From assembly GCF_003018235.1 (NCBI RefSeq), contig NZ_CP027437.1: a stretch of DNA of 64,000 bases. One strand, given 5' to 3'. Position 1 is the first letter of the stretch; the number at the start of each line of letters is the position of its first letter. Shown here piece after piece: positions 5,777 through 35,616 of this stretch. A program made the translations under genes and the position numbers. Source of the DNA: Escherichia coli. Lineage in GTDB: Bacteria; Pseudomonadota; Gammaproteobacteria; Enterobacterales; Enterobacteriaceae. The notes beneath the pieces were generated by a model, which saw nothing but the letters and a program-made list of their open reading frames with translations, was not told the DNA's origin and did no database searches.

Positions 5777-6529
5777 ATGGCTGTAACTAAGCTGGTTCTG
5801 GTTCGTCATGGCGAAAGTCAGTGGAACAAAGAAAACCGTTTCACCGGTTGGTACGACGTGGATCTGTCTGAGAAAGGCGTAAGCGAAGCAAAAGCAGCAG
5901 GTAAGCTGCTGAAAGAGGAAGGTTACAGCTTTGACTTTGCTTACACCTCTGTGCTGAAACGCGCTATCCATACCCTGTGGAATGTGCTGGACGAACTGGA
6001 TCAGGCATGGCTGCCCGTTGAGAAATCCTGGAAACTGAACGAACGTCACTACGGTGCGTTGCAGGGTCTGAACAAAGCGGAAACTGCTGAAAAGTATGGC
6101 GACGAGCAGGTGAAACAGTGGCGTCGTGGTTTTGCAGTGACTCCGCCGGAACTGACTAAAGATGATGAGCGTTATCCGGGTCACGATCCGCGTTACGCGA
6201 AACTGAGCGAGAAAGAACTGCCGCTGACGGAAAGCCTGGCGCTGACCATTGACCGCGTGATCCCTTACTGGAATGAAACTATTCTACCGCGTATGAAGAG
6301 CGGTGAGCGCGTAATCATCGCTGCACACGGTAACTCGTTACGTGCGCTGGTGAAATATCTTGATAACATGAGCGAAGAAGAGATTCTTGAGCTGAATATC
6401 CCGACCGGCGTGCCGCTGGTTTATGAGTTTGACGAGAACTTCAAACCGCTGAAACGCTATTATCTGGGTAATGCTGACGAGATCGCGGCGAAAGCAGCAG
6501 CCGTTGCGAACCAGGGTAAAGCGAAGTAA
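5777..6529 (+). CDS. gpmA: 2,3-bisphosphoglycerate-dependent phosphoglycerate mutase
   Basis: 250 aa; RHGESQWN catalytic His motif; RBS GAGGAG upstream of ATG at 5777. Confidence 0.95.
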
Positions 6530-9498: not shown

Positions 9499-10214
9499 TG
9501 GGACAGCGCGCGTGAACCTCTTTCGCGTGCGCTGTTGATCCACATCCGGCTGCCGTTGAGGGCAATAAAGGTCAGGATGATGTACTCCAGAGACATGGCG
9601 TAAACGCCCTGAAGTGCAAAAATAACGACGCTAATCACGTTAATAATCACCCACAACAGCCAGTTTTCCACATACTTACGCGTCATCAGAATCATTGCCA
9701 CGATAGATAACACCATCATGCAGGAATCCCAGAACGGGAAAGCGTCCGGTTGCAGTTCAGGCATCGCAACCTGTAATCCTAATGCTTGCATGATCATGAC
9801 TGCCACGCGGGTCAAAAATGCAAATACCGGATTGATAAATACCGTCATCAGACCAATCGAAACAACGCAAACCGCTAACCAGTTTAGCGCCTTCGGCAAT
9901 GGCAACCAGCGAATTTTCAACTCCGCCTCGTTCTGACTGGTTTGTCGCGACCACGCATACCAACCGTAAATATTCGCGGCAAAGAAAAACACCTGTAATA
10001 GCAGGCTGGCATACAGCTGAATCTGAAAGAAAATAATGCCAAACAAGGTGACGTTGATCAGGCCAAAGAAGTAGTTGCTGATCTTCTCCAGACTGGCAAG
10101 GCCAATACACAGCAACCCGGCGATCGTGCCTACCGCTTCGATCCATGAGAGATCATAACCGCCTGCTCCTATTGGTATATGTACCAGGATATTCTGCACA
10201 CTAAAAAAATCCAT
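9495..10214 (-). CDS. pnuC: nicotinamide riboside/NMN transporter
   Basis: 239 aa integral membrane protein; downstream of nadA in same orientation. Confidence 0.9.
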
Positions 10215-10251
10215 CTTTCCCCCAAAGCGTAACGTTACGCCTTATTATTCG

Positions 10252-11295
10252 TTATCCACGTAGTGTAGCCGCAAAATCCAGCATACGATTGAGCGGCACC
10301 AGCGCCCTCTCTCGCAGCCTTTCATCAACATGAACCTCGTGATTGCTTCCTTCCTGTTCTAATGCCTCTGCGATGGCCTGAAGGCCATTCATGGCCATCC
10401 ACGGACAATGCGCGCAGCTGCGGCAGGTTGCACCCTCACCTGCGGTTGGTGCTTCCAGTAACTCTTTATCTGGCACCGCCTGCTGCATTTTGTAGAAAAT
10501 ACCCCGATCGGTTGCCACAATAAGCCTCTGATGTGGCAATGTTTTCGCAGCAGCGATCAGTTGACTGGTGGAACCGACCGCATCCGCCATCTCTACAATA
10601 GCTTGTGGTGATTCTGGATGCACCAGTATGGCAGCATCCGGGTATTCTTCTTGCAAGCGGGTTAACGCCTGAGTCTTAAATTCATCATGCACAATGCAGG
10701 CACCCTGCCAGCATAAAATGTCTGCGCCCGTCTGTTTTTGCACGTAACGCCCCAGATGTTTGTCGGGTGCCCAGATGATTTTTTCACCCAAACTATCCAG
10801 ATGATCAATAAGTTCGACGGCAATGCTTGAAGTTACCACCCAATCTGCCCGCGCTTTTACCGCAGCAGAAGTGTTGGCGTAGACGACGACAGTATGATCG
10901 GGATGGGCATCGCAAAATGCGTTAAATTCTTCAACAGGGCAGCCGAGATCCAGTGAACATTCAGCCTGAAGTGTCGGCATCAGAATTGTTTTTTCCGGAC
11001 TGAGAATTTTGGCGGTTTCTCCCATAAATCTCACCCCAGCGACTAACAACGTAGAAGCGGGATGCTTTGCACCGAAGCGCGCCATTTCCAGAGAATCAGA
11101 AATACAGCCACCGGTTTCTTCTGCCAGTTGTTGAATTTCGGGATCGGTATAGTAATGGGCAACCATCACCGCATTACGTTCTTTTAGCAGACGTTTTATC
11201 TTCTCGCGGTAATACGCTTTTTCATCAATGCTTAACGGCGTCGGCTTCGGGGGGAAAGGATAAATCGCCGTGTCTGGATCAAACATCACGCTCAT
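10252..11295 (-). CDS. nadA: quinolinate synthase A
   Basis: 347 aa; conserved Cys residues for 4Fe-4S cluster. Confidence 0.95.
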
Positions 11296-22640: not shown

Positions 22641-23585
22641 ATGAGTCCTGATAATATCAGTTCTGCTGTCAATCGCTTCTCAGGTTGGCCATCTAATGAT
22701 CCTCTAAAAACAGATAAAGAATCAATGACATCACCCATGACTGTGCAGGTAATAAAGATGATTGCCGCCATCCTTGATCCACATCGGATAGTCGTTGGAA
22801 TCGATACACTTTATACAACGCAGCGCGAAACATTTACCTCAGAGAGTCAACAGCTCATTGAATCAGCATTGCAAACACTTCATGTGATGAATTTAAATAA
22901 CCTGGAAACAAATCTCGATGAGGAAGGTCACTATCTGGCTTTTGGATATAACGTTGACACTCCTGACAGAATAACCGTTTCTGCTTATAATGAAAAAAAG
23001 CCTGGCTGCTATGGTCAATGTCTTTTAATACAGGATGACGAAACAGACTTATTTAACCTGATAAAAGTTAAAATTTTTGAAGCCAGGCATAATTATGTCG
23101 CTCAATTGATGAGCGATCCGGAATTTATGTTCAAATTTAGTTATAGCGCTCAACAAAATAGATTAGAACCTCATCTTCTGGTTCCCACTTATTTCCCTCT
23201 AAAAACAAACGAACCGGTTACGCAAGAGGATGTACTGTTACTTTATCGTTTCTTTAAAATGGATGGTGATTTTAATATATTAACATCAGATGAATACATG
23301 AGTATCATGACACCTCTGATGAAGTGTGAGCGCAGCATCCACGACCACAACAGGTATGTGACGGGCAAAGATACCCTTCTTCTGGACTATCCTCCTTCTG
23401 GTAACCAGATATATTTCCATATTTTTCCTGACGAATCAGCAACACTAGTCCTTTATTTTTCAAACAATGACATTGAATGTTTCGTCTTTGAAAGAGATAT
23501 TCCGAGCCAGTATCGCTTTTTCAAAATGTTTACCAATCTGGCACTGGTTATTGATCAGTTAACCGATGCCAATCAAATACTTTAA
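22641..23585 (+). CDS. hypothetical protein (314 aa), AT-rich, no recognisable motif
   Basis: Long ORF with low GC (about 35–39% by eye) relative to flanks; acidic; no similarity I can recall. Confidence 0.6.
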   Translation: MSPDNISSAVNRFSGWPSNDPLKTDKESMTSPMTVQVIKMIAAILDPHRIVVGIDTLYTTQRETFTSESQQLIESALQTLHVMNLNNLETNLDEEGHYLAFGYNVDTPDRITVSAYNEKKPGCYGQCLLIQDDETDLFNLIKVKIFEARHNYVAQLMSDPEFMFKFSYSAQQNRLEPHLLVPTYFPLKTNEPVTQEDVLLLYRFFKMDGDFNILTSDEYMSIMTPLMKCERSIHDHNRYVTGKDTLLLDYPPSGNQIYFHIFPDESATLVLYFSNNDIECFVFERDIPSQYRFFKMFTNLALVIDQLTDANQIL

Positions 23586-24634: not shown

Positions 24635-25084
24635 ATGAAGAAAGCAACACTTGTGATTGGCGTTATTGGCGCGGACTGCCATGCAGTAGGCAATAAAGTT
24701 CTGGACCGCGTTTTTAGCAACCATGACTTCAGAGTTATTAATCTGGGCGTAATGGTCAGCCAGGACGAATATATTGATGCTGCCATTGAAACTGGTGCTG
24801 ACGCGATTGTCGTCTCCTCTATCTATGGGCATGGCGATATCGATTGTCTGGGCATGCGCGAACGCTGCATCGAGCGTGGGCTGGGTAACATCCTGCTCTA
24901 TGTGGGCGGTAACCTGGTGGTCGGAAAACATGACTTCGCTGACGTGGAAACCAAGTTCAAAGAGATGGGATTTGATCGCGTCTTTTCCCCAAGTCATGAC
25001 TTAGAAGATGTTTGTCAGCTGATGGCCCACGATATCAACCAACGTCATAACGTTGATACTCGCATTCTTGAAGAGGCAATCTGA
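24635..25084 (+). CDS. glmS: glutamate mutase sigma (B12-binding) subunit
   Basis: 149 aa from [21 protein letters not shown]: canonical DxHxxG cobalamin-binding motif and strong similarity to clostridial MutS/GlmS; RBS AAAGGA. Confidence 0.88.
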
Positions 25085-26472
25085 TGCAAATCGTCTCTGT
25101 CGATATTGGTTCGACGTGGACCAAAGCAGCCCTCTTCACCCGGGAGGGGGACGCGTTAACGTTGGTTAACCACGTTCTGACCCCAACCACCACCCATCAT
25201 CTGGCGAAGGGGTTTTTCTCCAGCCTGGACCAGGTGTTAAACGTAGATGATGCCCTCCCCCTGTTAAACAGTGGTGAGGTTGCATTGAAGTATTCCTCCT
25301 CTGCCAAAGGTGGGCTGGCGGTTGCCGCAATGGGATTGGTGCCTTCTATCACCCTGGAAACCGCGAAAGTAACCGCTCACTCTGCGGGTGCTAAAATTGC
25401 GCAATATTACGCCTACAAGCTGAACCGCCGTGATATCCAGGCACTGGAAGAAACGCAGCCCGATATTCTCTTATTCACCGGCGGCACCGATGGCGGAGAA
25501 GAAAGCTACGGACTGAATAACGCCCGTGTGTTGGCAGAATCCAAACTCGACTGCGCCATTATTTATGCCGGAAACCGGGATATTCAGGACGAGGTGCAGG
25601 AGATCCTCGGGCATAAAGACCTGACCATCGTCGACAACATTCTGCCCGATCTTGACCATCCGAACCCTTTAGCCGCACGCCAGGCTATCTGCGACATATT
25701 CCTTAAACGCATCGTTAAAGGGAAAGGGATGGATGTCGTTGTTGATAAAACAGGCGAAGAACCAATGCCGACACCATGGACGGTCTTTGAACTGGTTAAG
25801 GCAATCAGTAACGTCGATCACAGCTGGAAAGAGTTCATGCTGATCGACATGGGCGGCGCAACCACCGATGTCTATTCCGCCTGTGCCAACACGCTCTCGC
25901 CCGACACTGTTTTACATGGCGTACCGGAACCCTTCGTGAAACGGACGGTGGAAGGCGATCTGGGAATGCGCGTCTCGGCAATGGTGGTTGGTGAAAGTGC
26001 GAAAGAGTTAGTCAATGTGAATTTTGCTCAGCAACCCGCACAGCTGGACGCTTTTTATCATTACCTCCGTCATCTAGTCGCTCATCCCGACTACTTACCC
26101 GCGAATGCAGAAGAAAAATATTTCGATACCATCCTGGCCGGACTGTGTGTGGGTTATGCCACCGAAAGACATGCGGGCACCAAAAAAGAGGTCTGCACCT
26201 GCGTCGGCAATGTCGATTTACAGATGGGACGTGACCTGACAACCGTGCGTAAAGTCGTGGGTTCCGGCGGATGGCTCTCGCGTGCCAGTCAGTTCGATAT
26301 GCATCACTGGTTGAAATACCGCGAGTTAAACGACGACGGTAAACGCATTCTCTTACCGACCGAATTTGAATATTACCGCGATTCCCGGGGGCTATTACCA
26401 CTGCTGGCAAACGTCGCCAGAGTCGATCCACTGGCCGCCGCGCGCACCAGTATTCAATGCTTAACCCTATAA
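25084..26472 (+). CDS. glmL: glutamate mutase accessory protein GlmL/MutL (actin/Hsp70-fold ATPase-like, putative reactivase)
   Basis: 462 aa, translationally coupled (ATG overlaps glmS stop); sits between S and E subunit genes as in Clostridium. Confidence 0.75.
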   Translation: MQIVSVDIGSTWTKAALFTREGDALTLVNHVLTPTTTHHLAKGFFSSLDQVLNVDDALPLLNSGEVALKYSSSAKGGLAVAAMGLVPSITLETAKVTAHSAGAKIAQYYAYKLNRRDIQALEETQPDILLFTGGTDGGEESYGLNNARVLAESKLDCAIIYAGNRDIQDEVQEILGHKDLTIVDNILPDLDHPNPLAARQAICDIFLKRIVKGKGMDVVVDKTGEEPMPTPWTVFELVKAISNVDHSWKEFMLIDMGGATTDVYSACANTLSPDTVLHGVPEPFVKRTVEGDLGMRVSAMVVGESAKELVNVNFAQQPAQLDAFYHYLRHLVAHPDYLPANAEEKYFDTILAGLCVGYATERHAGTKKEVCTCVGNVDLQMGRDLTTVRKVVGSGGWLSRASQFDMHHWLKYRELNDDGKRILLPTEFEYYRDSRGLLPLLANVARVDPLAAARTSIQCLTL

Positions 26473-26490: not shown

Positions 26491-27936
26491 ATGGAACTTC
26501 GAAATAAGAAATTAACCCATAACGAATTCATGACCGAGCGGCAACAGGTATTGAAAACCTGGGAAACCGGCAAGGATGTTGAAAACTTTGAAGATGGCGT
26601 TAAATACCAACAAACCATTCCTGAGCATAAACGCTTCTCTCTTGCCCTGCTGAAAGCAGACAAGGAAGGTAAAACTCTTAGCCAACCGCGCGCAGGCGTG
26701 GCGCTGATGGACGAACACATCGAACTACTGAAAACACTACAAGAAGAGTGCGATCTGCTGCCGAGCACCATCGATGCATATACCCGTCTGAATCGGTACG
26801 AAGAAGCTGCTGTAGGGATTAAAAAATCCATCGAAGCCGGAACCTCTAAACTGAACGGTTTACCGGTCGTTAACCACGGCGTCGCAGCTTGCCGTCGCCT
26901 CACCGAAACTCTGCAAAAACCGCTACAGATCCGCCACGGCACGCCAGATGCGCGTCTGCTGGCTGAAATCTCGATGGCCAGCGGCTTTACCAGTTATGAA
27001 GGCGGCGGCATTTCCTACAATATTCCGTATGCCAAGCGCGTAACGCTGGAAAAATCGATCCGCGACTGGCAGTACTGCGACCGTTTAATGGGGATGTATG
27101 AAGAACACGGGATCCGCATCAACCGCGAACCATTTGGCCCACTAACGGGTACGCTGATCCCGCCGTTTATCTCGCACTCTATCGCGATAATCGAAGGATT
27201 ACTGGCGCTGGAACAGGGTGTGAAATCTATCACCGTTGGTTATGGACAGGTCGGCAGCCTGACGCAGGATGTCGCGGCGATCCAGTCTCTGCGTGAACTT
27301 GCACACGAATACTTTCAGAACTATGGCTATACCGACTATGAATTAAGTACCGTATTTCACCAGTGGATGGGCGGCTTTCCGGAAGACGAATCGAAAGCGT
27401 TCGCCATTATCTCCTGGGGTGCAGCCGTCGCGGGGATGTCTGGTGCCACCAAAGTCATCACCAAAAGCCCTCACGAAGCCTGGGGAATCCCGACTGCCGC
27501 TGCCAACATTCAGGGGCTGAAAGCCTCCCGCCAGATGCTCAACATGGTCAATGAGCAGAAATTCCCGCCGTGCCCTGCGGTTGAACTGGAAATTGAACTG
27601 ATTAAGAGCGAGGTTCGCGCGGTACTGAATAAAGTGTTCGAACTGGGTAATGGTGATATTGCGCGCGGTACGGTGCTGGCATTTGAAGCGGGCGTACTGG
27701 ATGTGCCATTTGCACCAGCCGCGTGTAACGCGGGCAAAATTCTTCCGGTCCGTGACAACACCGGCGCGATACGCGTACTGGAAGCCGGAGCCGTTCCATT
27801 GCCAAAAGATATTCTCGACCTCCACCACGATTACGTTGCTGAACGCGCACGCTTTGAAGGACGCCAACCGACATTCCAGATGGTTGTAGATGACATCAAT
27901 GCTGTATCCCACAGTAAATTAATAGGAAGACCATAA
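26491..27936 (+). CDS. glmE: glutamate mutase epsilon (catalytic) subunit, methylaspartate mutase E chain
   Basis: 481 aa; N-terminus MELRNKKLTHNEF...QVLKTWETGKDV closely resembles clostridial GlmE/MutE. Confidence 0.88.
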   Translation: MELRNKKLTHNEFMTERQQVLKTWETGKDVENFEDGVKYQQTIPEHKRFSLALLKADKEGKTLSQPRAGVALMDEHIELLKTLQEECDLLPSTIDAYTRLNRYEEAAVGIKKSIEAGTSKLNGLPVVNHGVAACRRLTETLQKPLQIRHGTPDARLLAEISMASGFTSYEGGGISYNIPYAKRVTLEKSIRDWQYCDRLMGMYEEHGIRINREPFGPLTGTLIPPFISHSIAIIEGLLALEQGVKSITVGYGQVGSLTQDVAAIQSLRELAHEYFQNYGYTDYELSTVFHQWMGGFPEDESKAFAIISWGAAVAGMSGATKVITKSPHEAWGIPTAAANIQGLKASRQMLNMVNEQKFPPCPAVELEIELIKSEVRAVLNKVFELGNGDIARGTVLAFEAGVLDVPFAPAACNAGKILPVRDNTGAIRVLEAGAVPLPKDILDLHHDYVAERARFEGRQPTFQMVVDDINAVSHSKLIGRP

Positions 27937-29177
27937 TGAAAATAAAACAGGCCCTTTTTACCGCTGGCTACTCCTCATTCTATTTCGATGACCAGCAGGC
28001 GATAAAAAACGGAGCGGGTCACGACGGTTTTTTTTATACCGGGGAGCCAGTAACACAGGGGTTTAACGCCGTACGTCAGGCCGGGGAGTGCGTATCGGTA
28101 CAGTTGATTCTGGAAAACGGCGCGGTCGCCGTAGGTGACTGTGCTGCCGTACAGTATTCCGGGGCAGGTGGTCGCGATCCACTGTTCCTCGCGGAGCACT
28201 TTATTCCGTTCCTCAACGACCATATCAAGCCATTACTGGTAGGCCGCGATGTGGATACTTTCCTGCCGAATGCCCGTTTCTTCGACAAATTGCGTATTGA
28301 CGGCAACTTGCTGCATACCGCCGTGCGCTACGGATTATCACAGGCGCTGCTTGATGCTACCGCGCTGGCAACCGGCCGTCTGAAAACTGAAGTGGTCTGT
28401 GATGAATGGCAGTTGCCACGCGTGGCGGAATCCATTCCATTATTTGGTCAGAGCGGCGACGATCGATATATCGCCGTCGATAAGATGATCCTTAAGGGCA
28501 TCGACGTGCAGCCCCATGCACTGATTAATAACGTCGAAGAGAAACTGGGCTTTAAAGGTGAAAAACTGCGCGAATATGTCCGCTGGCTGTCGGATCGTAT
28601 TCTGAGCAAGCGCACCAGCGCACGCTACCACCCTACCCTGCACATCGATGTATACGGCACTATCGGTCTGATCTTCGATATGGATCCGCTTCGCTGTGCG
28701 CAATACATCGCCAGCCTGGAAAAAGAAGCGCAAGGCCTGCCGCTCTACATTGAAGGTCCGGTCGATGCCGGTAACAAGCCCGATCAAATTCGCCTGCTGA
28801 CCGCGATTACCAAAGAGCTGACGCGCCTCGGTTCCGGCGTGAAACTAGTGGCCGATGAATGGTGTAACACCTACCAGGATATTGTTGATTTCACCGATGC
28901 CGCCAGTTGCCACATGGTGCAAATCAAAACCCCGGATCTGGGCAGTATTCACAACATCGTCAATGCAGTTCTTTATTGCAACAGCCACAGCATGGAAGCG
29001 TACCAGGGCGGCACCTGCAATGAAACTGATGTCAGTGCCCGCACCTGTGTCCACGTCGCCCTTGCCGCTCGCCCCATGCGTATGCTGGTAAAACCAGGGA
29101 TGGGCTTTGACGAAGGCCTCGATATCGTCTTCAACGAAATGAATCGTACTATCGCGCTGTTGCAGGCTAAGGATTAA
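27936..29177 (+). CDS. mal: 3-methylaspartate ammonia-lyase (methylaspartase)
   Basis: 413 aa; enolase-superfamily motifs (FYFDDQ, AVQYSGAGGRDPLFLA) matching clostridial/Citrobacter MAL. Confidence 0.9.
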   Translation: MKIKQALFTAGYSSFYFDDQQAIKNGAGHDGFFYTGEPVTQGFNAVRQAGECVSVQLILENGAVAVGDCAAVQYSGAGGRDPLFLAEHFIPFLNDHIKPLLVGRDVDTFLPNARFFDKLRIDGNLLHTAVRYGLSQALLDATALATGRLKTEVVCDEWQLPRVAESIPLFGQSGDDRYIAVDKMILKGIDVQPHALINNVEEKLGFKGEKLREYVRWLSDRILSKRTSARYHPTLHIDVYGTIGLIFDMDPLRCAQYIASLEKEAQGLPLYIEGPVDAGNKPDQIRLLTAITKELTRLGSGVKLVADEWCNTYQDIVDFTDAASCHMVQIKTPDLGSIHNIVNAVLYCNSHSMEAYQGGTCNETDVSARTCVHVALAARPMRMLVKPGMGFDEGLDIVFNEMNRTIALLQAKD

Positions 29178-29180
29178 CAA

Positions 29181-30551
29181 ATGGCTCGTTCTTTTAAAGT
29201 CTTATCGCCAACGGCAATCCTCGGGTATGGATTCCCGGAGGAGAGCTTCCGCAAAGCGATGGCAGAATCGCCCGATCTGATCGCCGTTGATGCTGGCTCT
29301 TCCGATCCTGGCCCCCACTACCTCGGGGCGGGCAAACCGTTTACCGCTCGCGCAGGGGTCAAGCGCGATCTGCGCTATATGATCACCGCAGGCGTGCAAA
29401 ATAATATACCGGTGGTGATCGGAACGGCCGGCGGTTCTGGTGCCGCTCCACATCTGGAGTGGTGCCGAGAAATAATTCATGAGATTGCCCGGGAAGAGCA
29501 CCTCTCGTTCTCGATGGCGCTGATCCCGGCAGACGTTGACAAAGCTATCGTCCACCAGGCGCTGGATAACGGCAAAATCACGGCGCTGGATTTTGTCCCG
29601 CCGTTAACCCACGACGCGATTGACGAAAGTACGTATATCGTCGCGCAAATGGGCATCGAACCCTTCCAGCGGGCGCTGAAAGAAGGCGCGCAAGTGGTGC
29701 TGGGCGGGCGCGCTTACGACCCGGCCTGCTTTGCTGCGCTTCCGATCATGCAAGGCTTTGATGAAGGTCTGGCGCTGCATTGTGGGAAAATCCTTGAATG
29801 CGCGGCAATCGCCGCAACGCCCGGCTCAGGCTCTGACTGTGCGATGGGCATCATTGATGACAACGGCTTTACGCTGAAGACATTTAATCCGAAGCGTAAA
29901 TTTACCGAAACGTCAGCGGCTGCACACACACTGTATGAGAAATCCGATCCCTACTTCCTGCCTGGACCTGGCGGCGTGTTGAACCTGAAAGGCTGCACAT
30001 TTAAAGCGGTCAATGACAGCGAAGTGTACGTCAGCGGTTCTAAGCATGAAGAAACGCCGTATTCCCTGAAACTGGAAGGTGCGCGACGGGTGGGCTTCCG
30101 CTGTCTGACCATCGCCGGAACGCGCGACCCGATCATGATCGCCGGGATCGATAAAATCATCGATGAAGTCAAAACCAGCGTTTCGCGTAACCTGTCGCTC
30201 GACGATGACAGCATTCACATCAATTTCCACCTGTACGGCAAAAACGGGGTGATGGGCGACCATGAACCGATGCAAACTGCCGGGCATGAGCTGGGGATTG
30301 TCCTAGATGTAGTTGCGCCGACCCAGGAGATTGCCAACAGCGTTTGCTCGCTGGTGCGCTCTACTATGCTGCACTACGGCTATGAAAACCGCATCGCTAC
30401 CGCAGGCAACCTGGCGTTCCCGTTCTCCCCTTCTGATATCCAGGGCGGGCCAGTATACGAATTTTCCATATATCACCTGATTGAAGCCAACGACGCTCTG
30501 CGTTTTGATTTCCATATTGAACAGGTGACGCCAGAAGGAGTTCAGGCATGA
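29181..30551 (+). CDS. conserved protein of unknown function, AtuA-like N-terminal part (DUF1446-type)
   Basis: 456 aa soluble protein; domain assignment from memory, not verified. Confidence 0.55.
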   Translation: MARSFKVLSPTAILGYGFPEESFRKAMAESPDLIAVDAGSSDPGPHYLGAGKPFTARAGVKRDLRYMITAGVQNNIPVVIGTAGGSGAAPHLEWCREIIHEIAREEHLSFSMALIPADVDKAIVHQALDNGKITALDFVPPLTHDAIDESTYIVAQMGIEPFQRALKEGAQVVLGGRAYDPACFAALPIMQGFDEGLALHCGKILECAAIAATPGSGSDCAMGIIDDNGFTLKTFNPKRKFTETSAAAHTLYEKSDPYFLPGPGGVLNLKGCTFKAVNDSEVYVSGSKHEETPYSLKLEGARRVGFRCLTIAGTRDPIMIAGIDKIIDEVKTSVSRNLSLDDDSIHINFHLYGKNGVMGDHEPMQTAGHELGIVLDVVAPTQEIANSVCSLVRSTMLHYGYENRIATAGNLAFPFSPSDIQGGPVYEFSIYHLIEANDALRFDFHIEQVTPEGVQA

Positions 30552-30865
30552 AACAGTCAATTGTCTCACTGGCGCAAGTCATTCGTTCGAAAAATGCCGG
30601 ACCTTACGAACTGGTTTTAGATATTTTATTTAAAACGAAAGAAAACTATGAGCGAGTTAAATCATCAGGGCAATTAACCCCAGAACTGATCGCGCGCTTA
30701 TATCATGTTGAACCTGACTTTATTCATCGTATTGTCTGGTTTGATCCTTCTAACGCAGTAAAAATCGTCATGCCACGAGATATTATCTCCGGGAATGTAG
30801 GTGACAATGATGTCTATGGCGCACAGCAACATGCACCTTTATTAAATATGAGTTTCGATTTGTAA
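30548..30865 (+). CDS. small conserved protein, AtuA-like C-terminal part (DUF4387-type)
   Basis: 105 aa; start overlaps upstream stop (ATGA), suggesting a two-subunit pair. Confidence 0.5.
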   Translation: MKQSIVSLAQVIRSKNAGPYELVLDILFKTKENYERVKSSGQLTPELIARLYHVEPDFIHRIVWFDPSNAVKIVMPRDIISGNVGDNDVYGAQQHAPLLNMSFDL

Positions 30866-31025: not shown

Positions 31026-32306
31026 ATGAAGAAAATAAGTTTAACCACGATGATTCTTTTGGCGCTCGTACTTGGAATGATTATCGGCGTAGTGCTCAAT
31101 AACACTGCTTCACCGGAAACCGCAAAACTCTATGCGCAAGAAATATCGATATTCACGACGATTTTCTTACGACTGATAAAAATGATTATCGCTCCGTTAG
31201 TGGTCTCTACCCTGGTGGTAGGTATAGCTAAAATGGGAGATGCCAAAGCCCTTGGTCGTATTTTTTCTAAAACACTCTTTTTATTTATTTGCGCCTCATT
31301 GCTGTCAATTGCCTTAGGCTTGATAACAGTAAATTTCTTCATGCCAGGCACAGGAATTAATTTTGTTGCACACGGAGCCGAAACCACCGGAGTGGTCGCA
31401 TCAGAACCCTTTACGCTAAAAGTATTTATTTCGCATGCTTTCCCCACCAGCATTGTCGATGCCATGGCGCACAATGAAATTTTGCAAATCGTAGTGTTCT
31501 CAATTTTCCTCGGCTGTAGCCTGACGGCGATTGGCGAGAAAGGCAGCGCCATCGTTCACGCCTTAGATTCGCTGGCACATGCCATGTTAAAGCTCACTGG
31601 CTACGTCATGCTCTTCGCTCCCCTGACCGTATTCGCTGCTATTTCAGCATTGATTGCTGAACGAGGACTGGCAGTTATGGTGAGCGCCGGGATCTTTATG
31701 GGTGAATTTTATTTCACCATGTTATTACTTTGGGTGCTGCTTATCGGTCTGGCCATCGTTTATGTCGGCCCCTGCATCAGACGCCTGACCCGCGCCCTTT
31801 CGGAACCCGCTCTGCTGGCATTTACCACATCCAGTTCTGAAGCGGCTTTTCCGGGAACGCTTGAAAAACTGGAGCAATTTGGCGTTTCCCCCAAAATTGC
31901 CAGCTTTGTCTTACCCATTGGCTACTCATTTAATCTCGTTGGATCAATGGCCTACTGCTCCTTCGCCACAGTTTTCATCGCCCAGGCCTGCAATATCCAT
32001 TTATCCATCGGTGAGCAAATCACCATGCTGTTGATCCTGATGTTGACCTCGAAAGGAATGGCTGGCGTACCACGCGCCTCAATGGTGGTTATCGCCGCCA
32101 CGCTCAACCAGTTCAATATTCCGGAAGCGGGGCTGATCTTGCTGATGGGCGTTGATCCGTTCCTTGATATGGGGCGTTCCGCGACAAACGTCATGAGCAA
32201 CGCAATGGGCGCTGCGATGGTGAGTCGGTGGGAAGGCGAACATTTCGGCGAGGGTTGTCGGGGTAAAGCATTAAAACCCAATGAATCGAACGTTGCTCTG
32301 CCCTGA
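31026..32306 (+). CDS. dicarboxylate/amino acid:cation symporter (DAACS family, GltP/DctA-like)
   Basis: About 426 aa polytopic protein with GltP/DctA-type motifs; RBS GGAGG before ATG at 31026. Confidence 0.8.
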   Translation: MKKISLTTMILLALVLGMIIGVVLNNTASPETAKLYAQEISIFTTIFLRLIKMIIAPLVVSTLVVGIAKMGDAKALGRIFSKTLFLFICASLLSIALGLITVNFFMPGTGINFVAHGAETTGVVASEPFTLKVFISHAFPTSIVDAMAHNEILQIVVFSIFLGCSLTAIGEKGSAIVHALDSLAHAMLKLTGYVMLFAPLTVFAAISALIAERGLAVMVSAGIFMGEFYFTMLLLWVLLIGLAIVYVGPCIRRLTRALSEPALLAFTTSSSEAAFPGTLEKLEQFGVSPKIASFVLPIGYSFNLVGSMAYCSFATVFIAQACNIHLSIGEQITMLLILMLTSKGMAGVPRASMVVIAATLNQFNIPEAGLILLMGVDPFLDMGRSATNVMSNAMGAAMVSRWEGEHFGEGCRGKALKPNESNVALP

Positions 32307-32413: not shown

Positions 32414-34065
32414 ATGTCCAAACCATTTATCTGGCAAGAACCGTTTCTACAAAATAAAGACGGTACAGAATATACATTAATTAGCGATCAACATATTACA
32501 GTAACGGAATTAGACGGCGAAGAAGTGATAAAAATCGCTCCTGAAGCATTAACGCTGCTTGCCCGGCAGGCATTTTATGAAGCCTCTTTTTTCTTACGTT
32601 CCGCTCATTTGCAACAGGTCGCCAGCATTCTTAACGATCCGCAGGCCAGTAGTAATGATAAATACGTTGCGTTGCAGTTATTACGTAATGCTGAAGTCTC
32701 AGCAAAAGGGGTATTACCCAACTGTCAGGATACCGGCACCGCAACTATTGTTGCCAGTAAAGGGCAACAGATATGGACGGGAGGTAACGACGCTGAAGCC
32801 TTAAGCAAAGGCATTTACAGTACTTTCCAGGAAAATAATCTGCGCTTTTCACAAAATGCGCCGCTGGATATGTATACCGAAGTCAATACGCAAACCAATC
32901 TCCCGGCGCAGATTGATATCAGCGCTGTCGCTGGTAATGAGTACCATTTTCTCTGTGTTAATAAAGGGGGCGGCTCCGCCAATAAAGCCGCACTTTATCA
33001 GGAAACCAAATCCTTATTGCAACCAGAAAAACTGACCGCATTTTTAATCGAAAAAATGAAATCGCTGGGCACCGCTGCCTGCCCGCCTTACCACATCGCC
33101 TTTGTCGTCGGAGGGCTTTCAGCCGATCAAACCTTAAAAGTTGCCAAGCTGGCCTCTACGAAATATTACGACAATTTGCCCACCAGCGGAAACGAGCAGG
33201 GACAAGCATTCCGTGATATTGAGCTGGAAAAAGTGTTGCTCGAGGTCAGTCAGCAATTTGGTATTGGTGCGCAATTTGGGGGTAAATATTTCGCTCATGA
33301 TATTCGCGTCATTCGTCTGCCGCGTCACGGTGGCTCTTGCCCGATAGCTATGGCGCTCTCCTGTTCTGCCGATCGCAATATCAAAGCAAAAATTAACAAG
33401 CACGGTATCTGGCTGGAAAAACTCGAACACAATCCGGGGCAATATATTCCAGCCTCACTGCGGGAAGAAAATCACGCGCAACATGTACAACTGGATCTAA
33501 ACCGTCCGTTGCGTGACGTGATGCAGGATCTCGCCAGATTACCGGTAGGCACCCGCGTGTCGTTAAGTGGTCCCATCGTAGTGGCACGCGATATCGCCAC
33601 GCCAAAATAAAAGCGCGGCTGGATAACGCCGAACCGATGCCGGATTACCTGAAGCATCATATTGTCTATTACGCTGGCTCGGCGAAAACACCGGAGAACA
33701 TGGCCTGCGGTTCACTGGGTCCAACCACGGGCGGTCGAATGGACGGTTATGTCGATACCTTCCAGGCGGCTGGCGGCAGTCTGGTGATGTTATCGAAAGG
33801 TAACCGCAGCCAGCAGGTCACCGATGCCTGTCACAAACATGGTGGCTTCAATCTGGGTAGTATTGGCGGTGCAGCTGCGTTACTGGCGCAAGAATATGTC
33901 AAAAGTCTGCGTTGCCTGGAATACCCGGAGCTGGGTATGGAAGCGGTGTGGATGATGGAAGTGGAAAATCTGCCCGCATTCATCCTGGTAGATGATAAAG
34001 GCAATAATTTCTTTAGTCAGTTTGAGCAGCAACACCGCTGCGCCAGTTGCCCTGCGGGACATTAA
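32414..34065 (+). pseudogene. fumD: class I fumarate hydratase family (FumD-type mesaconase), interrupted by apparent 1-bp deletion near 33595
   Basis: ORFs 32414..33610 and 33637..34065 are N- and C-terminal parts of one FumA-like protein; C-part frame reads ...[20 protein letters not shown] continuously upstream, offset one base from ...[11 protein letters not shown]. Confidence 0.75.
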
Positions 34066-34074
34066 GGAAAATGA

Positions 34075-34677
34075 ATGGAAGCGCGAATTTCAACTGAACG
34101 GCATGTGCAGCGCCAGCAGAAATTGAAGGAACAGGTCGATACGCGCATCGCGGCGGCGATAGAGAAAAAAGGGATTTTGATTGTTTTCACCGGCAATGGC
34201 AAAGGGAAATCCACTGCCGCGTTTGGTACTGTGACGCGCGCGGTGGGTCATGGCAAAACGGTGGGGGTTGCGCAGTACATCAAGGGGCAATGGGACAACG
34301 GCGAATACAACCTTCTCCAGCCGCTGGGGGTTGAGTTTCATATTATGGGAACCGGTTTTACCTGGGAGACACAGAACCGGCAAGCGGATATCGACGCGGC
34401 GAAAGAGGTCTGGTCGGAAAGCAAACGGATGCTGGCTGACAAGCGTTACGACTTAGTGGTGCTTGATGAGCTGACCTATATGCTGGCTTACCATTATCTG
34501 GATACCGAAGAAGTGATCGCTTCTCTGCAAAACCGCCCGGCACAACAAAGTGTCATTGTCACCGGACGCGGTTGCCACAGTCAGATATTAAAAATGGCGG
34601 ATACGGTCAGCGAAATCCGCCCCGTCAAACATGCTTTTGATAACGGCATTCAGGCCCAGCCGGGTATCGACTGGTAA
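34075..34677 (+). CDS. cob(I)alamin/cob(I)yrinic acid a,c-diamide adenosyltransferase (BtuR/CobA paralog)
   Basis: 200 aa; P-loop GNGKGKSTAAFG and strong similarity to E. coli BtuR. Confidence 0.85.
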   Translation: MEARISTERHVQRQQKLKEQVDTRIAAAIEKKGILIVFTGNGKGKSTAAFGTVTRAVGHGKTVGVAQYIKGQWDNGEYNLLQPLGVEFHIMGTGFTWETQNRQADIDAAKEVWSESKRMLADKRYDLVVLDELTYMLAYHYLDTEEVIASLQNRPAQQSVIVTGRGCHSQILKMADTVSEIRPVKHAFDNGIQAQPGIDW

Positions 34678-34680
34678 TAA

Positions 34681-34712
34681 CTGCGCCTGGCATCCCGCCA
34701 GGCGCAGGTTTT
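34681..34712. terminator. bidirectional terminator between adenosyltransferase gene and LysR gene
   Basis: Hairpin CTGCGCCTGG(catcccg)CCAGGCGCAG followed by TTTT. Confidence 0.6.
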
Positions 34713-35616
34713 ACATCTCCTGCGGTACAACCGATTTCGCCAGCAACCATTCACGAAATTGCTGCAAGTGCGGTGAGTCAGACTTCTCTTCCTGCCACGT
34801 CATAATAAAACGATTACCGGTACGAATAGGCACATCACAGGGGATCACCATATCGCCACTATCCAAATCATGTTGAATAGCGAAACGTGGTAACAGCGCC
34901 ACGCCGAGATTAGAGCGCACGGCGGCAATCAGCATTGAAAGCAAATCGAAACGTGGTCCGTTGTTGACCAGCGGACTGCTAACGCCAGATAAGGCAAACC
35001 ACTCTTCCCAGCCAGTAATACGGGTACTTTGATGCAGAAGTGGTAACTCTGTAAGCAGTTCTGCCACTGACAGTTTTTGATCGGACATTGCAAGCAAACT
35101 GCCGCTGCATACCGGCAAAATCTCCTCATCAAAGAGATATTCTACTTCCGCCCAGGGCGCGCAAAAATTTTCGCGCATAATGACAGCATCGTACTCCCGA
35201 TTAAGAAAATCGCCGTTATTAGCTAAAGAGTGAATATTAACAATAATATCGGGATGTAACTTTGTGAATTCATGTAAATTTGGGATTAACCAGTGGGTAC
35301 TAAACGTAGGATTCACGGCAAGTTCAATAACCTGAACCGTAGGCTGCCAGGTCATAATGGTATTGGTATCGCGTTCCAGCTTATTTAATGTTTCTTTTAC
35401 TATCCCCAGGTAATACTTCCCTGCATCATTAAGAAAAATACGTTTTTTAGAGTGTGAAAATAACGGAGTATGTAAAAATTCCTCCAGCGCACTCACTTGT
35501 CTGAATACTGCACTTTGGGTCAACGCTAACTCCTCTGCCGCTTTGGTATAACTTTCATGACGTGCGACGACCTCAAAAGTCACCAGCAGCTCCGTTTTAG
35601 GTATTTTTCCTCGCAT
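34711..35616 (-). CDS. LysR-family transcriptional regulator
   Basis: 301 aa; N-terminal HTH (TKAAEELALTQSAVFRQVSALE) and LysR substrate-binding domain. Confidence 0.85.
   Translation of the reverse strand: MRGKIPKTELLVTFEVVARHESYTKAAEELALTQSAVFRQVSALEEFLHTPLFSHSKKRIFLNDAGKYYLGIVKETLNKLERDTNTIMTWQPTVQVIELAVNPTFSTHWLIPNLHEFTKLHPDIIVNIHSLANNGDFLNREYDAVIMRENFCAPWAEVEYLFDEEILPVCSGSLLAMSDQKLSVAELLTELPLLHQSTRITGWEEWFALSGVSSPLVNNGPRFDLLSMLIAAVRSNLGVALLPRFAIQHDLDSGDMVIPCDVPIRTGNRFIMTWQEEKSDSPHLQQFREWLLAKSVVPQEM

Follow-up and report, generated by a model that had tools for sequence, protein, structure and literature searches.

The two overlapping genes that lie between the methylaspartase gene and a transporter gene in an accessory operon of E. 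coli very probably encode, judging from sequence comparison, the E. coli ortholog of CmlAB, a two-subunit citramalate lyase. The operon was analysed within a stretch of 64,000 nucleotides of E. coli DNA (contig NZ_CP027437.1), hereafter called the window, to which all positions refer. The finding is already known: structures and a name for the enzyme date from late 2025, others have since employed it, and a description of the E. coli cluster appeared in 2015. The pair and their junction are the following.

29181..30551, + strand: cmlA, predicted large subunit of citramalate lyase, 456 aa, Pfam AtuA/DUF1446 (ORF list, ATG start)
30548..30865, + strand: cmlB, predicted small subunit of citramalate lyase, 105 aa, Pfam DUF4387 (ORF list, ATG start)
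30535..30551, + strand: coupling junction of cmlA and cmlB, AAGGAG Shine-Dalgarno and ATGA overlap (sequence reading)

As read from the sequence, the cmlB ATG (30548-30550) and the cmlA TGA (30549-30551) share the overlap ATGA. The AAGGAG Shine-Dalgarno sequence (30535-30540) is located inside the 3' end of cmlA, 7 nt before the cmlB ATG. An AAGGA sequence at 29169-29173 is likewise placed 7 nt before the cmlA ATG, and the methylaspartase stop codon (29175-29177) precedes the cmlA start by 3 nt. The overlap is not universal among the homologous loci compared below, as it is 4 bp in L005 and is replaced by an 18-bp gap in L002 and L007. Pfam analysis revealed that residues 63-394 of CmlA matched AtuA (PF07287; E 4e-19, 69.2 bits) and residues 6-101 of CmlB matched DUF4387 (PF14330; E 2.9e-39, 134.1 bits). 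The two ORFs are genuine genes and not chance ORFs, since the stretch is conserved with two annotated CDSs and CmlA has more than 6800 homologous cluster representatives. Thus, the first-pass annotation had described the pair correctly, both as 456-aa and 105-aa proteins joined by an ATGA overlap and as a split AtuA/DUF1446 plus DUF4387 protein, both Pfam families being matched and single-chain fused homologs being known. Its flanking genes, methylaspartate ammonia-lyase upstream and a DctA/GltP-type symporter downstream, were also found as claimed in an annotated relative and by NCBIfam.

The operon runs in the order glmS-glmL-glmE-mal-cmlA-cmlB-transporter-fumD-cobO and is an accessory operon of E. 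coli. The coordinates of glmS were taken from the 99.7%-identical locus L001, shifted by an offset of 19180 bases. The remaining features of the operon and its downstream end are listed here.

24635..25084, + strand: glmS, glutamate (methylaspartate) mutase subunit S, first gene of the operon (RefSeq annotation of L001)
25084..26472, + strand: glmL, glutamate mutase accessory protein (MutL) (ORF list, L001 annotation)
26491..27936, + strand: glmE, glutamate mutase subunit E (ORF list, L001 annotation)
27936..29177, + strand: mal, methylaspartate ammonia-lyase, the mesaconate producer (ORF list, L001 annotation)
31026..32306, + strand: dicarboxylate/amino acid:cation symporter, GltP/DctA-like (annotation, NCBIfam)
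32414..34065, + strand: fumD, class I fumarase/mesaconase, frameshifted here (annotation, NCBIfam)
34075..34677, + strand: cobO, cob(I)yrinic acid a,c-diamide adenosyltransferase (B12 for the mutase), last gene of the operon (annotation, NCBIfam)
34681..34707, + strand: terminator-like hairpin directly 3' of cobO, 11-bp stem with 9 G-C pairs (consensus scan only)
34711..35616, - strand: LysR-family regulator, convergent, candidate regulator of the operon (annotation)

In the annotated relative the operon region lies between cydAB and mngAB, two hypothetical genes precede glmS, and the RefSeq names of the pair are 'acyclic terpene utilization AtuA family protein' and 'DUF4387 domain-containing protein'. 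The terminator scan detected no hairpin comparable to the strong one at 34681-34707 within the gene series of the operon. The promoter scan found 7 sigma-70-like sites as compared to 13.4 in shuffled controls, and no internal promoter is claimed. The 1685-bp stretch carrying the pair was 99.7% identical to that of E. coli strain GMF065 and, with 95% identity as the lower limit, was recovered from 1125 of 5426 complete E. coli genomes, annotated as two CDSs, in single copy per genome and almost always on the chromosome. The cluster in the window is the one described by Kronen and Berg in 2015 (PMC4682846), and its LysR gene is the putative LTTR in Fig. 5 of that paper.

The identity of the pair was indicated by comparison with the crystallised ortholog, CmlAB of Raoultella planticola (PDB 9ERQ and 9EVF; Berg laboratory). 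CmlA aligned without gaps over residues 1-456 with residues 1-456 of 9erq_A (phmmer E 1.6e-289) and was about 91% identical to chain A of 9ERQ/9EVF by Foldseek, while residues 1-104 of CmlB aligned with residues 1-104 of 9erq_B (phmmer E 5.2e-57), with about 85% of the aligned positions identical by count. The window CmlA was also modelled with AlphaFold (28-sequence alignment, pLDDT 86.3), and the model superposed on both 9ERQ and 9EVF; Foldseek gave a TM score of 0.93 and 91% identity against 9evf_A, indicating a shared fold. In these entries, released in October 2025, the depositors call the chains 'Citramalate lyase, subunit A (cmlA)' and 'subunit B (cmlB)', and the complexes hold AMPPNP with citramalate and ADP with pyruvate; 9EVF, titled 'Citramalate lyase - ADP - pyruvate complex', bears the release date 2025-10-08. 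The reported activity is that of the R. planticola ortholog only, to which the E. coli pair is matched by sequence.

Activity is described in a January 2026 preprint, in which an E. coli host expressing no glm or mal genes showed Cml-dependent growth on mesaconate, with label from mesaconate recovered in leucine derived from acetyl-CoA. There Cml is presented as cleaving directly to pyruvate and acetate, within a 'CoA-independent' module. The literature searched yielded no primary paper on CmlAB, only this 2026 user preprint and Kronen and Berg 2015, and the assignment is therefore based on the PDB names and titles together with one preprint that used a gifted enzyme. The first-pass annotation had guessed that the pair might act at the unaccounted citramalate step. 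This guess was borne out by the structures, which name the orthologous pair citramalate lyase and show citramalate or pyruvate bound; domain searches, which could have led to an unrelated characterised family, also favoured a role in the pathway. Its description of the pair as an uncharacterised enzyme of unknown function is out of date, in view of the October 2025 structures and the use of the enzyme as a tool in the January 2026 preprint.

Kronen and Berg showed that FumD is a mesaconase, noted that the DUF1446 gene following mal had no known function, and reported that E. coli O157:H7 had no citramalate lyase activity attributable to citrate, isocitrate or methylisocitrate lyase (PMC4682846). 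We consider it highly likely that the CmlAB step fills the gap that they could not assign in 2015. In the complete pathway, GlmSE would convert glutamate to methylaspartate, with GlmL and CobO supporting the B12 cofactor, and methylaspartase would then yield mesaconate. FumD (or FumA/B) would hydrate mesaconate to (S)-citramalate, and CmlAB would break the C2-C3 bond of citramalate to give pyruvate and a C2 unit that ends as acetate.

Classical citrate and citramalate lyases first form a thioester on an acyl carrier protein, which eases release of the acetate carbanion, and in ATP-citrate lyase ATP activates the carboxylate of a tertiary hydroxy acid before C-C cleavage. CmlAB likewise binds ATP/ADP with substrate or product, though ATP-citrate lyase is a mechanistic analogue only. 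In all likelihood CmlAB needs neither CoA nor an acyl carrier protein and works on an AtuA/DUF1446 plus DUF4387 scaffold. Since an adenine nucleotide accompanies substrate or product in both complexes and CmlAB has no acyl carrier subunit, we favour a transient transfer of phosphate from ATP to the C4 carboxylate of citramalate, a reading drawn from the ligand names only and one to which we give about an even chance. The carbanion of the acetate type that arises in retro-aldol cleavage would be stabilised by the acyl phosphate, as it is by the thioester in classical lyases, and cleavage would give pyruvate and enolic acetyl phosphate. Two fates are conceivable for the phosphate: transfer back to ADP on the enzyme, with pyruvate and acetate as the net products, or release as acetyl phosphate, from which acetate kinase would recover it. 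Alternatively, the nucleotide could be purely structural or allosteric.

A rival reading is an enzyme that consumes ATP stoichiometrically, either as a citramalate kinase/lyase giving acetyl phosphate and ADP or by hydrolysing ATP at every turnover. AMPPNP and ADP in the two deposited complexes would suit such an enzyme, as would the difficulty of making an acetate carbanion without activation, familiar from the enzymology of citrate lyase and ATP-citrate lyase. We regard it as doubtful, because the preprint has direct, 'CoA-independent' cleavage to pyruvate and acetate and because net hydrolysis of ATP would be expected to cost most of the energy yield of glutamate fermentation. Evolved strains in the January 2026 preprint upregulated Acs, the acetate-activating acetyl-CoA synthetase, which is consistent with free acetate and argues weakly against net release of acetyl phosphate.

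Transient phosphorylation by ATP may reach beyond CmlAB. We propose tentatively, as a possibility well short of even, that the nucleotide is a catalytic cofactor acting through transient citramalyl or acetyl phosphate, that this chemistry is general to the AtuA/DUF1446 plus DUF4387 family, and that a third component takes part outside Enterobacterales. Clustering at 50% leaves 2387 representatives of the family, among them Pseudomonas AtuA and fungal fusion proteins encoded next to PrpD-like genes. If the proposal is true, the family would be a class of lyases, so far unrecognised, in which ATP assists the release of acetate from tertiary 3-hydroxy acids, and AtuA would be given the long-missing 3-hydroxy-3-isohexenylglutaryl-CoA:acetate lyase step. 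Among 116 family representatives (50% identity clusters), D42, G44, G87, G158, G176, R177, D180, G192, E253, P263, G265, E299, G305 and G353 (CmlA numbering) were conserved at 95% or more, and H200, K203, E206 and C207 at 85% or more. Among the polar positions, D42, R177, D180, E253 and E299 were invariant throughout the family. The conserved residues are candidate catalytic residues of CmlA, on the strength of the alignment.

The state of the operon in the strain studied here needs separate consideration. The fumD gene in the window is split into ORFs of 398 aa and 142 aa by a 1-bp deletion in a C-run, around position 33597. The deletion occurs in 0 of 1068 other complete E. coli genomes and is thus private to the window, and the operon may be partly decayed in this strain. 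On this basis the whole pathway could be cryptic or decaying here, leaving an intact pair with no current physiological role, and the failure to induce expression of the cluster in E. coli ATCC 700728 (O157:H7) points the same way (PMC4682846). We find this unlikely, as cmlA and cmlB are full-length and gapless against the crystallised ortholog, FumA and FumB, which also act as mesaconases (PMC4682846), could stand in for FumD, and the apparent loss of one base from a C-run may reflect an error in sequencing.

Conservation of the gene neighbourhood was assessed by a synteny scan of one genome per GTDB species, in which the best 80 loci were compared by tblastn with the window proteins; counts of mal and glmE refer to the 63 loci having at least 4.5 kb of upstream sequence. 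CmlA itself matched more than 6800 cluster representatives at E <=1e-5, and the best 120 of these, drawn from many phyla, were all at least 59% identical to it. Among the best 80 loci, cmlB followed cmlA directly in all 77 that had sequence room, and fumarase-like genes were present in 42. The mal gene lay directly upstream of cmlA on the same strand in 54 of the 63 loci, and glmE was present in 56. The 80 loci include Enterobacterales, Betaproteobacteria, Riflebacteria, Aminicenantes/Acidobacteriota, Lentisphaerae, Spirochaetes, Planctomycetes, Chloroflexi, Clostridia and Deltaproteobacteria, Firmicutes being named among the phyla, and three metagenomic/MAG lineages retain the order glmS-glmL-glmE-mal-cmlA-cmlB. 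The linkage to glutamate mutase genes in other genomes, which the first-pass annotation had proposed as a check, therefore extends over many phyla, and this conserved synteny supports the role as citramalate lyase.

Tight linkage to mal and glmSLE could also mark a protein that assists or matures glutamate mutase or methylaspartase, and some database entries do name CmlA '3-methylaspartate ammonia-lyase'. Such a role, which had been raised in the earlier reading of this DNA under the name of enzyme maturation, is very improbable and has gained no support. The PDB complexes hold citramalate and pyruvate and no mutase or lyase partners, and Cml alone gives mesaconate-dependent growth in E. coli without expression of glm or mal (preprint). 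Moreover, cmlAB occurs without glm or mal within about 10 kb, for example in L029, L043, L064, L079, L083 and L084. A fumarase-like gene accompanies the pair in L043; the neighbours in L029, L064 and L084 (efflux pumps, HrpA, a protease, a histidine kinase and MalQ) offer no informative context.

A role of the AtuA type in catabolism of acyclic terpenes (citronellol/geraniol), to which the Pfam AtuA match and the RefSeq product name 'acyclic terpene utilization AtuA family protein' might point, retains next to no probability and is effectively refuted by genomic context and ligand-bound structures: genes for acyl-CoA carboxylase, enoyl-CoA hydratase or acyl-CoA dehydrogenase are absent from the annotated neighbourhood, the Pfam score is modest (69 bits) against a full-length match of about 91% to the citramalate lyase structure, and the context across phyla is consistently glutamate mutase with methylaspartase. 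An atu-type cluster, comprising geranyl-CoA carboxylase subunits, hydratase and dehydrogenase, was likewise not found in the annotated neighbourhood.

Pseudomonas AtuA, the founder of PF07287, shares its Pfam families with CmlAB, and a core of D42, G44, G87, R177, D180, E253 and E299 is shared across the 116 representatives of the AtuA family. In the window, by contrast, the two domains are split into two genes, atu context is lacking, and CmlAB has a named substrate. To our knowledge, the substrate of AtuA has not been established. The single-chain AtuA plus DUF4387 proteins closest to CmlA share 35-41% identity with it, are about 608-621 aa long and are fungal, so that the bacterial atu-type context sought among them was not obtained; two of them adjoin PrpD/MmgE-family genes. 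By sequence comparison, separate A and B subunits represent a variant of an architecture that other family members carry in one chain.

The known enzymes for the same conversion differ from CmlAB in kind. The classical lyase (CitDEF with CitC/X/G; EC 4.1.3.22 / 4.1.3.6) carries out the same net conversion of (S)-citramalate to pyruvate and acetate, and holds the same position in the methylaspartate pathway in clostridial clusters for glutamate fermentation (PMC4682846). The two are unrelated in sequence, Pfam showing only AtuA and DUF4387 in CmlAB. CitDEF relies on an acyl carrier subunit with phosphoribosyl-dephospho-CoA and on thioesters, whereas direct cleavage is described for CmlAB, which has an adenine nucleotide as its bound ligand. 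Homologs of CitC/D/E/F/X/G were absent from the 64-kb window (tblastn with E. coli K-12 queries) and from 79 of the 80 loci, the exception being a CitE-like ORF about 9 kb upstream in L083. Thus, CmlAB holds the place of CitDEF, as known from the clostridial clusters (PMC4682846), wherever this type of operon occurs. The citramalyl-CoA lyase route also leads from citramalate to pyruvate and a C2 unit (PMC4682846, Fig. 2 legend), but it needs activation with CoA and yields acetyl-CoA, and its genes are missing from most enterobacteria (PMC4682846). The CitE-like ORF in L083 is the only relative of citramalyl-CoA lyase seen near cmlAB.

With CmlAB in place, the gap left in 2015 in the enterobacterial methylaspartate pathway is closed, and the operon, carried by about one-fifth of complete E. 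coli genomes, can be taken to provide every step from glutamate to pyruvate, acetate and ammonia. The enzyme, already in use in synthetic pathways, is of interest to enzymology as a lyase that is probably free of CoA and acyl carrier and has a fold with no other solved relative. NCBIfam release 20 (June 2026) holds no model for either subunit. Pfam, NCBIfam and RefSeq labels still read 'AtuA family' and 'DUF4387', and some records wrongly name cmlA '3-methylaspartate ammonia-lyase'; re-annotation is possible in thousands of genomes.

Outside Enterobacterales, a further gene of about 315 codons was observed in the cluster in 48 of 62 loci, mostly directly after cmlB; the copy in L005 lies at 9677-10618. 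The encoded proteins share 43-64% identity between phyla and combine a TsaE-like P-loop with an AlaX-like domain, the invariant residues including K55, H182, H204, C257 and H263. Searches of Pfam, NCBIfam and PDB sequences assigned them to no family beyond a Walker A match. In the 64-kb window this third gene was absent by tblastn, and a 314-aa hypothetical ORF upstream of the operon (22641-23585), considered as its counterpart, was rejected at a BLASTP E value of 0.87. PADLOC returned nothing meaningful for the third gene or for the upstream hypothetical ORFs. As enterobacterial Cml works without it (preprint), the third gene is not essential for catalysis. It is present in L043, which has neither glm nor mal, and thus travels with cmlAB and not with the mutase; its protein may be an additional component of the CmlAB system outside Enterobacterales. 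At least 2137 cluster representatives of this protein exist, most of them unnamed.

A conserved gene of about 315 aa was found within the cmlAB cluster at 48 of the 62 non-enterobacterial loci, mostly located directly 3' of cmlB. Four examples from the 48 loci, in coordinates local to each locus, are:

L005:9677-10618, P-loop gene of about 315 aa
L007:9712-10665, the same gene
L002:9698-10654, the same gene
L026:9857-10780, the same gene

Among the 48 is L043, a locus devoid of glutamate mutase (glm) and methylaspartase (mal) genes. The window carries no copy of the gene. Neither Pfam nor NCBIfam has a family for this gene. The AF2 model of its product (pLDDT 88) predicted a TsaE-like P-loop domain joined to a ThrRS/AlaX editing-domain fold, and residues K55, H182, H204, C257 and H263 were invariant in the protein. 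This P-loop protein might serve the Cml system as an accessory component.

No glutamate mutase or methylaspartase gene was found within about 10 kb of cmlAB in five loci (L029, L064, L079, L083 and L084) from Accumulibacter, Desulfospira, Shewanella and Haliea. cmlA is located at about 10001 in all of them except L079, where it is at 6455. The genes around these loci, encoding efflux pumps, HrpA, a protease and MalQ, were uninformative. A CitE-like ORF lies about 9 kb upstream of cmlAB in L083.

The closest single-chain AtuA+DUF4387 homologs of CmlA are fungal, being about 610 aa long with 35-41% identity:

L090:7001-8836, fungal fused AtuA+DUF4387 homolog
L092:8001-9954, fungal fused AtuA+DUF4387 homolog

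On these two unrelated contigs the fused genes adjoin MmgE/PrpD-family genes, and on L090 aconitase and ICL/PEP-mutase genes are also nearby. Such neighbours hint at a role of the fused proteins in branched organic-acid metabolism.

Database annotation of cmlAB trails the structures. RefSeq and Pfam still label the window pair (29181-30865) as 'AtuA family' and 'DUF4387', NCBIfam (June 2026) has no model for the pair, and several GenBank entries (P0002, P0060 and P0072) name cmlA homologs '3-methylaspartate ammonia-lyase', a misnaming already pointed out by Kronen and Berg 2015 (PMC4682846).

Two hypothetical ORFs lie between cydA and glmS in the window:

22641-23585, + strand, hypothetical ORF of 314 aa
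23666-24088, + strand, hypothetical ORF of 140 aa

The stretch holding them is AT-rich, with a GC content of 0.35-0.39 as compared to about 0.52 across the operon. RefSeq lists the two as hypothetical genes in strain GMF065, and neither matched anything in NCBIfam or PADLOC. The 314-aa ORF was considered as a relative of the P-loop gene and was found to be unrelated.

Two features were noted towards the operon end:

32414-34065, fumD, mesaconase/fumarase gene, broken into two ORFs by a deletion near 33597
34681-34707, + strand, strong terminator-like hairpin, 11-bp stem with 9 G-C pairs

fumD is split into ORFs of 398 aa and 142 aa, as compared to 550 aa for the intact gene, by a 1-bp deletion within a C-run. 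The extra base was present in all the complete E. coli genomes that matched the surrounding 66-mer (1068/1068), so the deletion is a frameshift private to this strain or else an error in the sequencing. The hairpin is located 4 nt past the cobO stop and 4 nt ahead of the convergent LysR gene's stop, and it is probably where the glmS-cobO operon ends.
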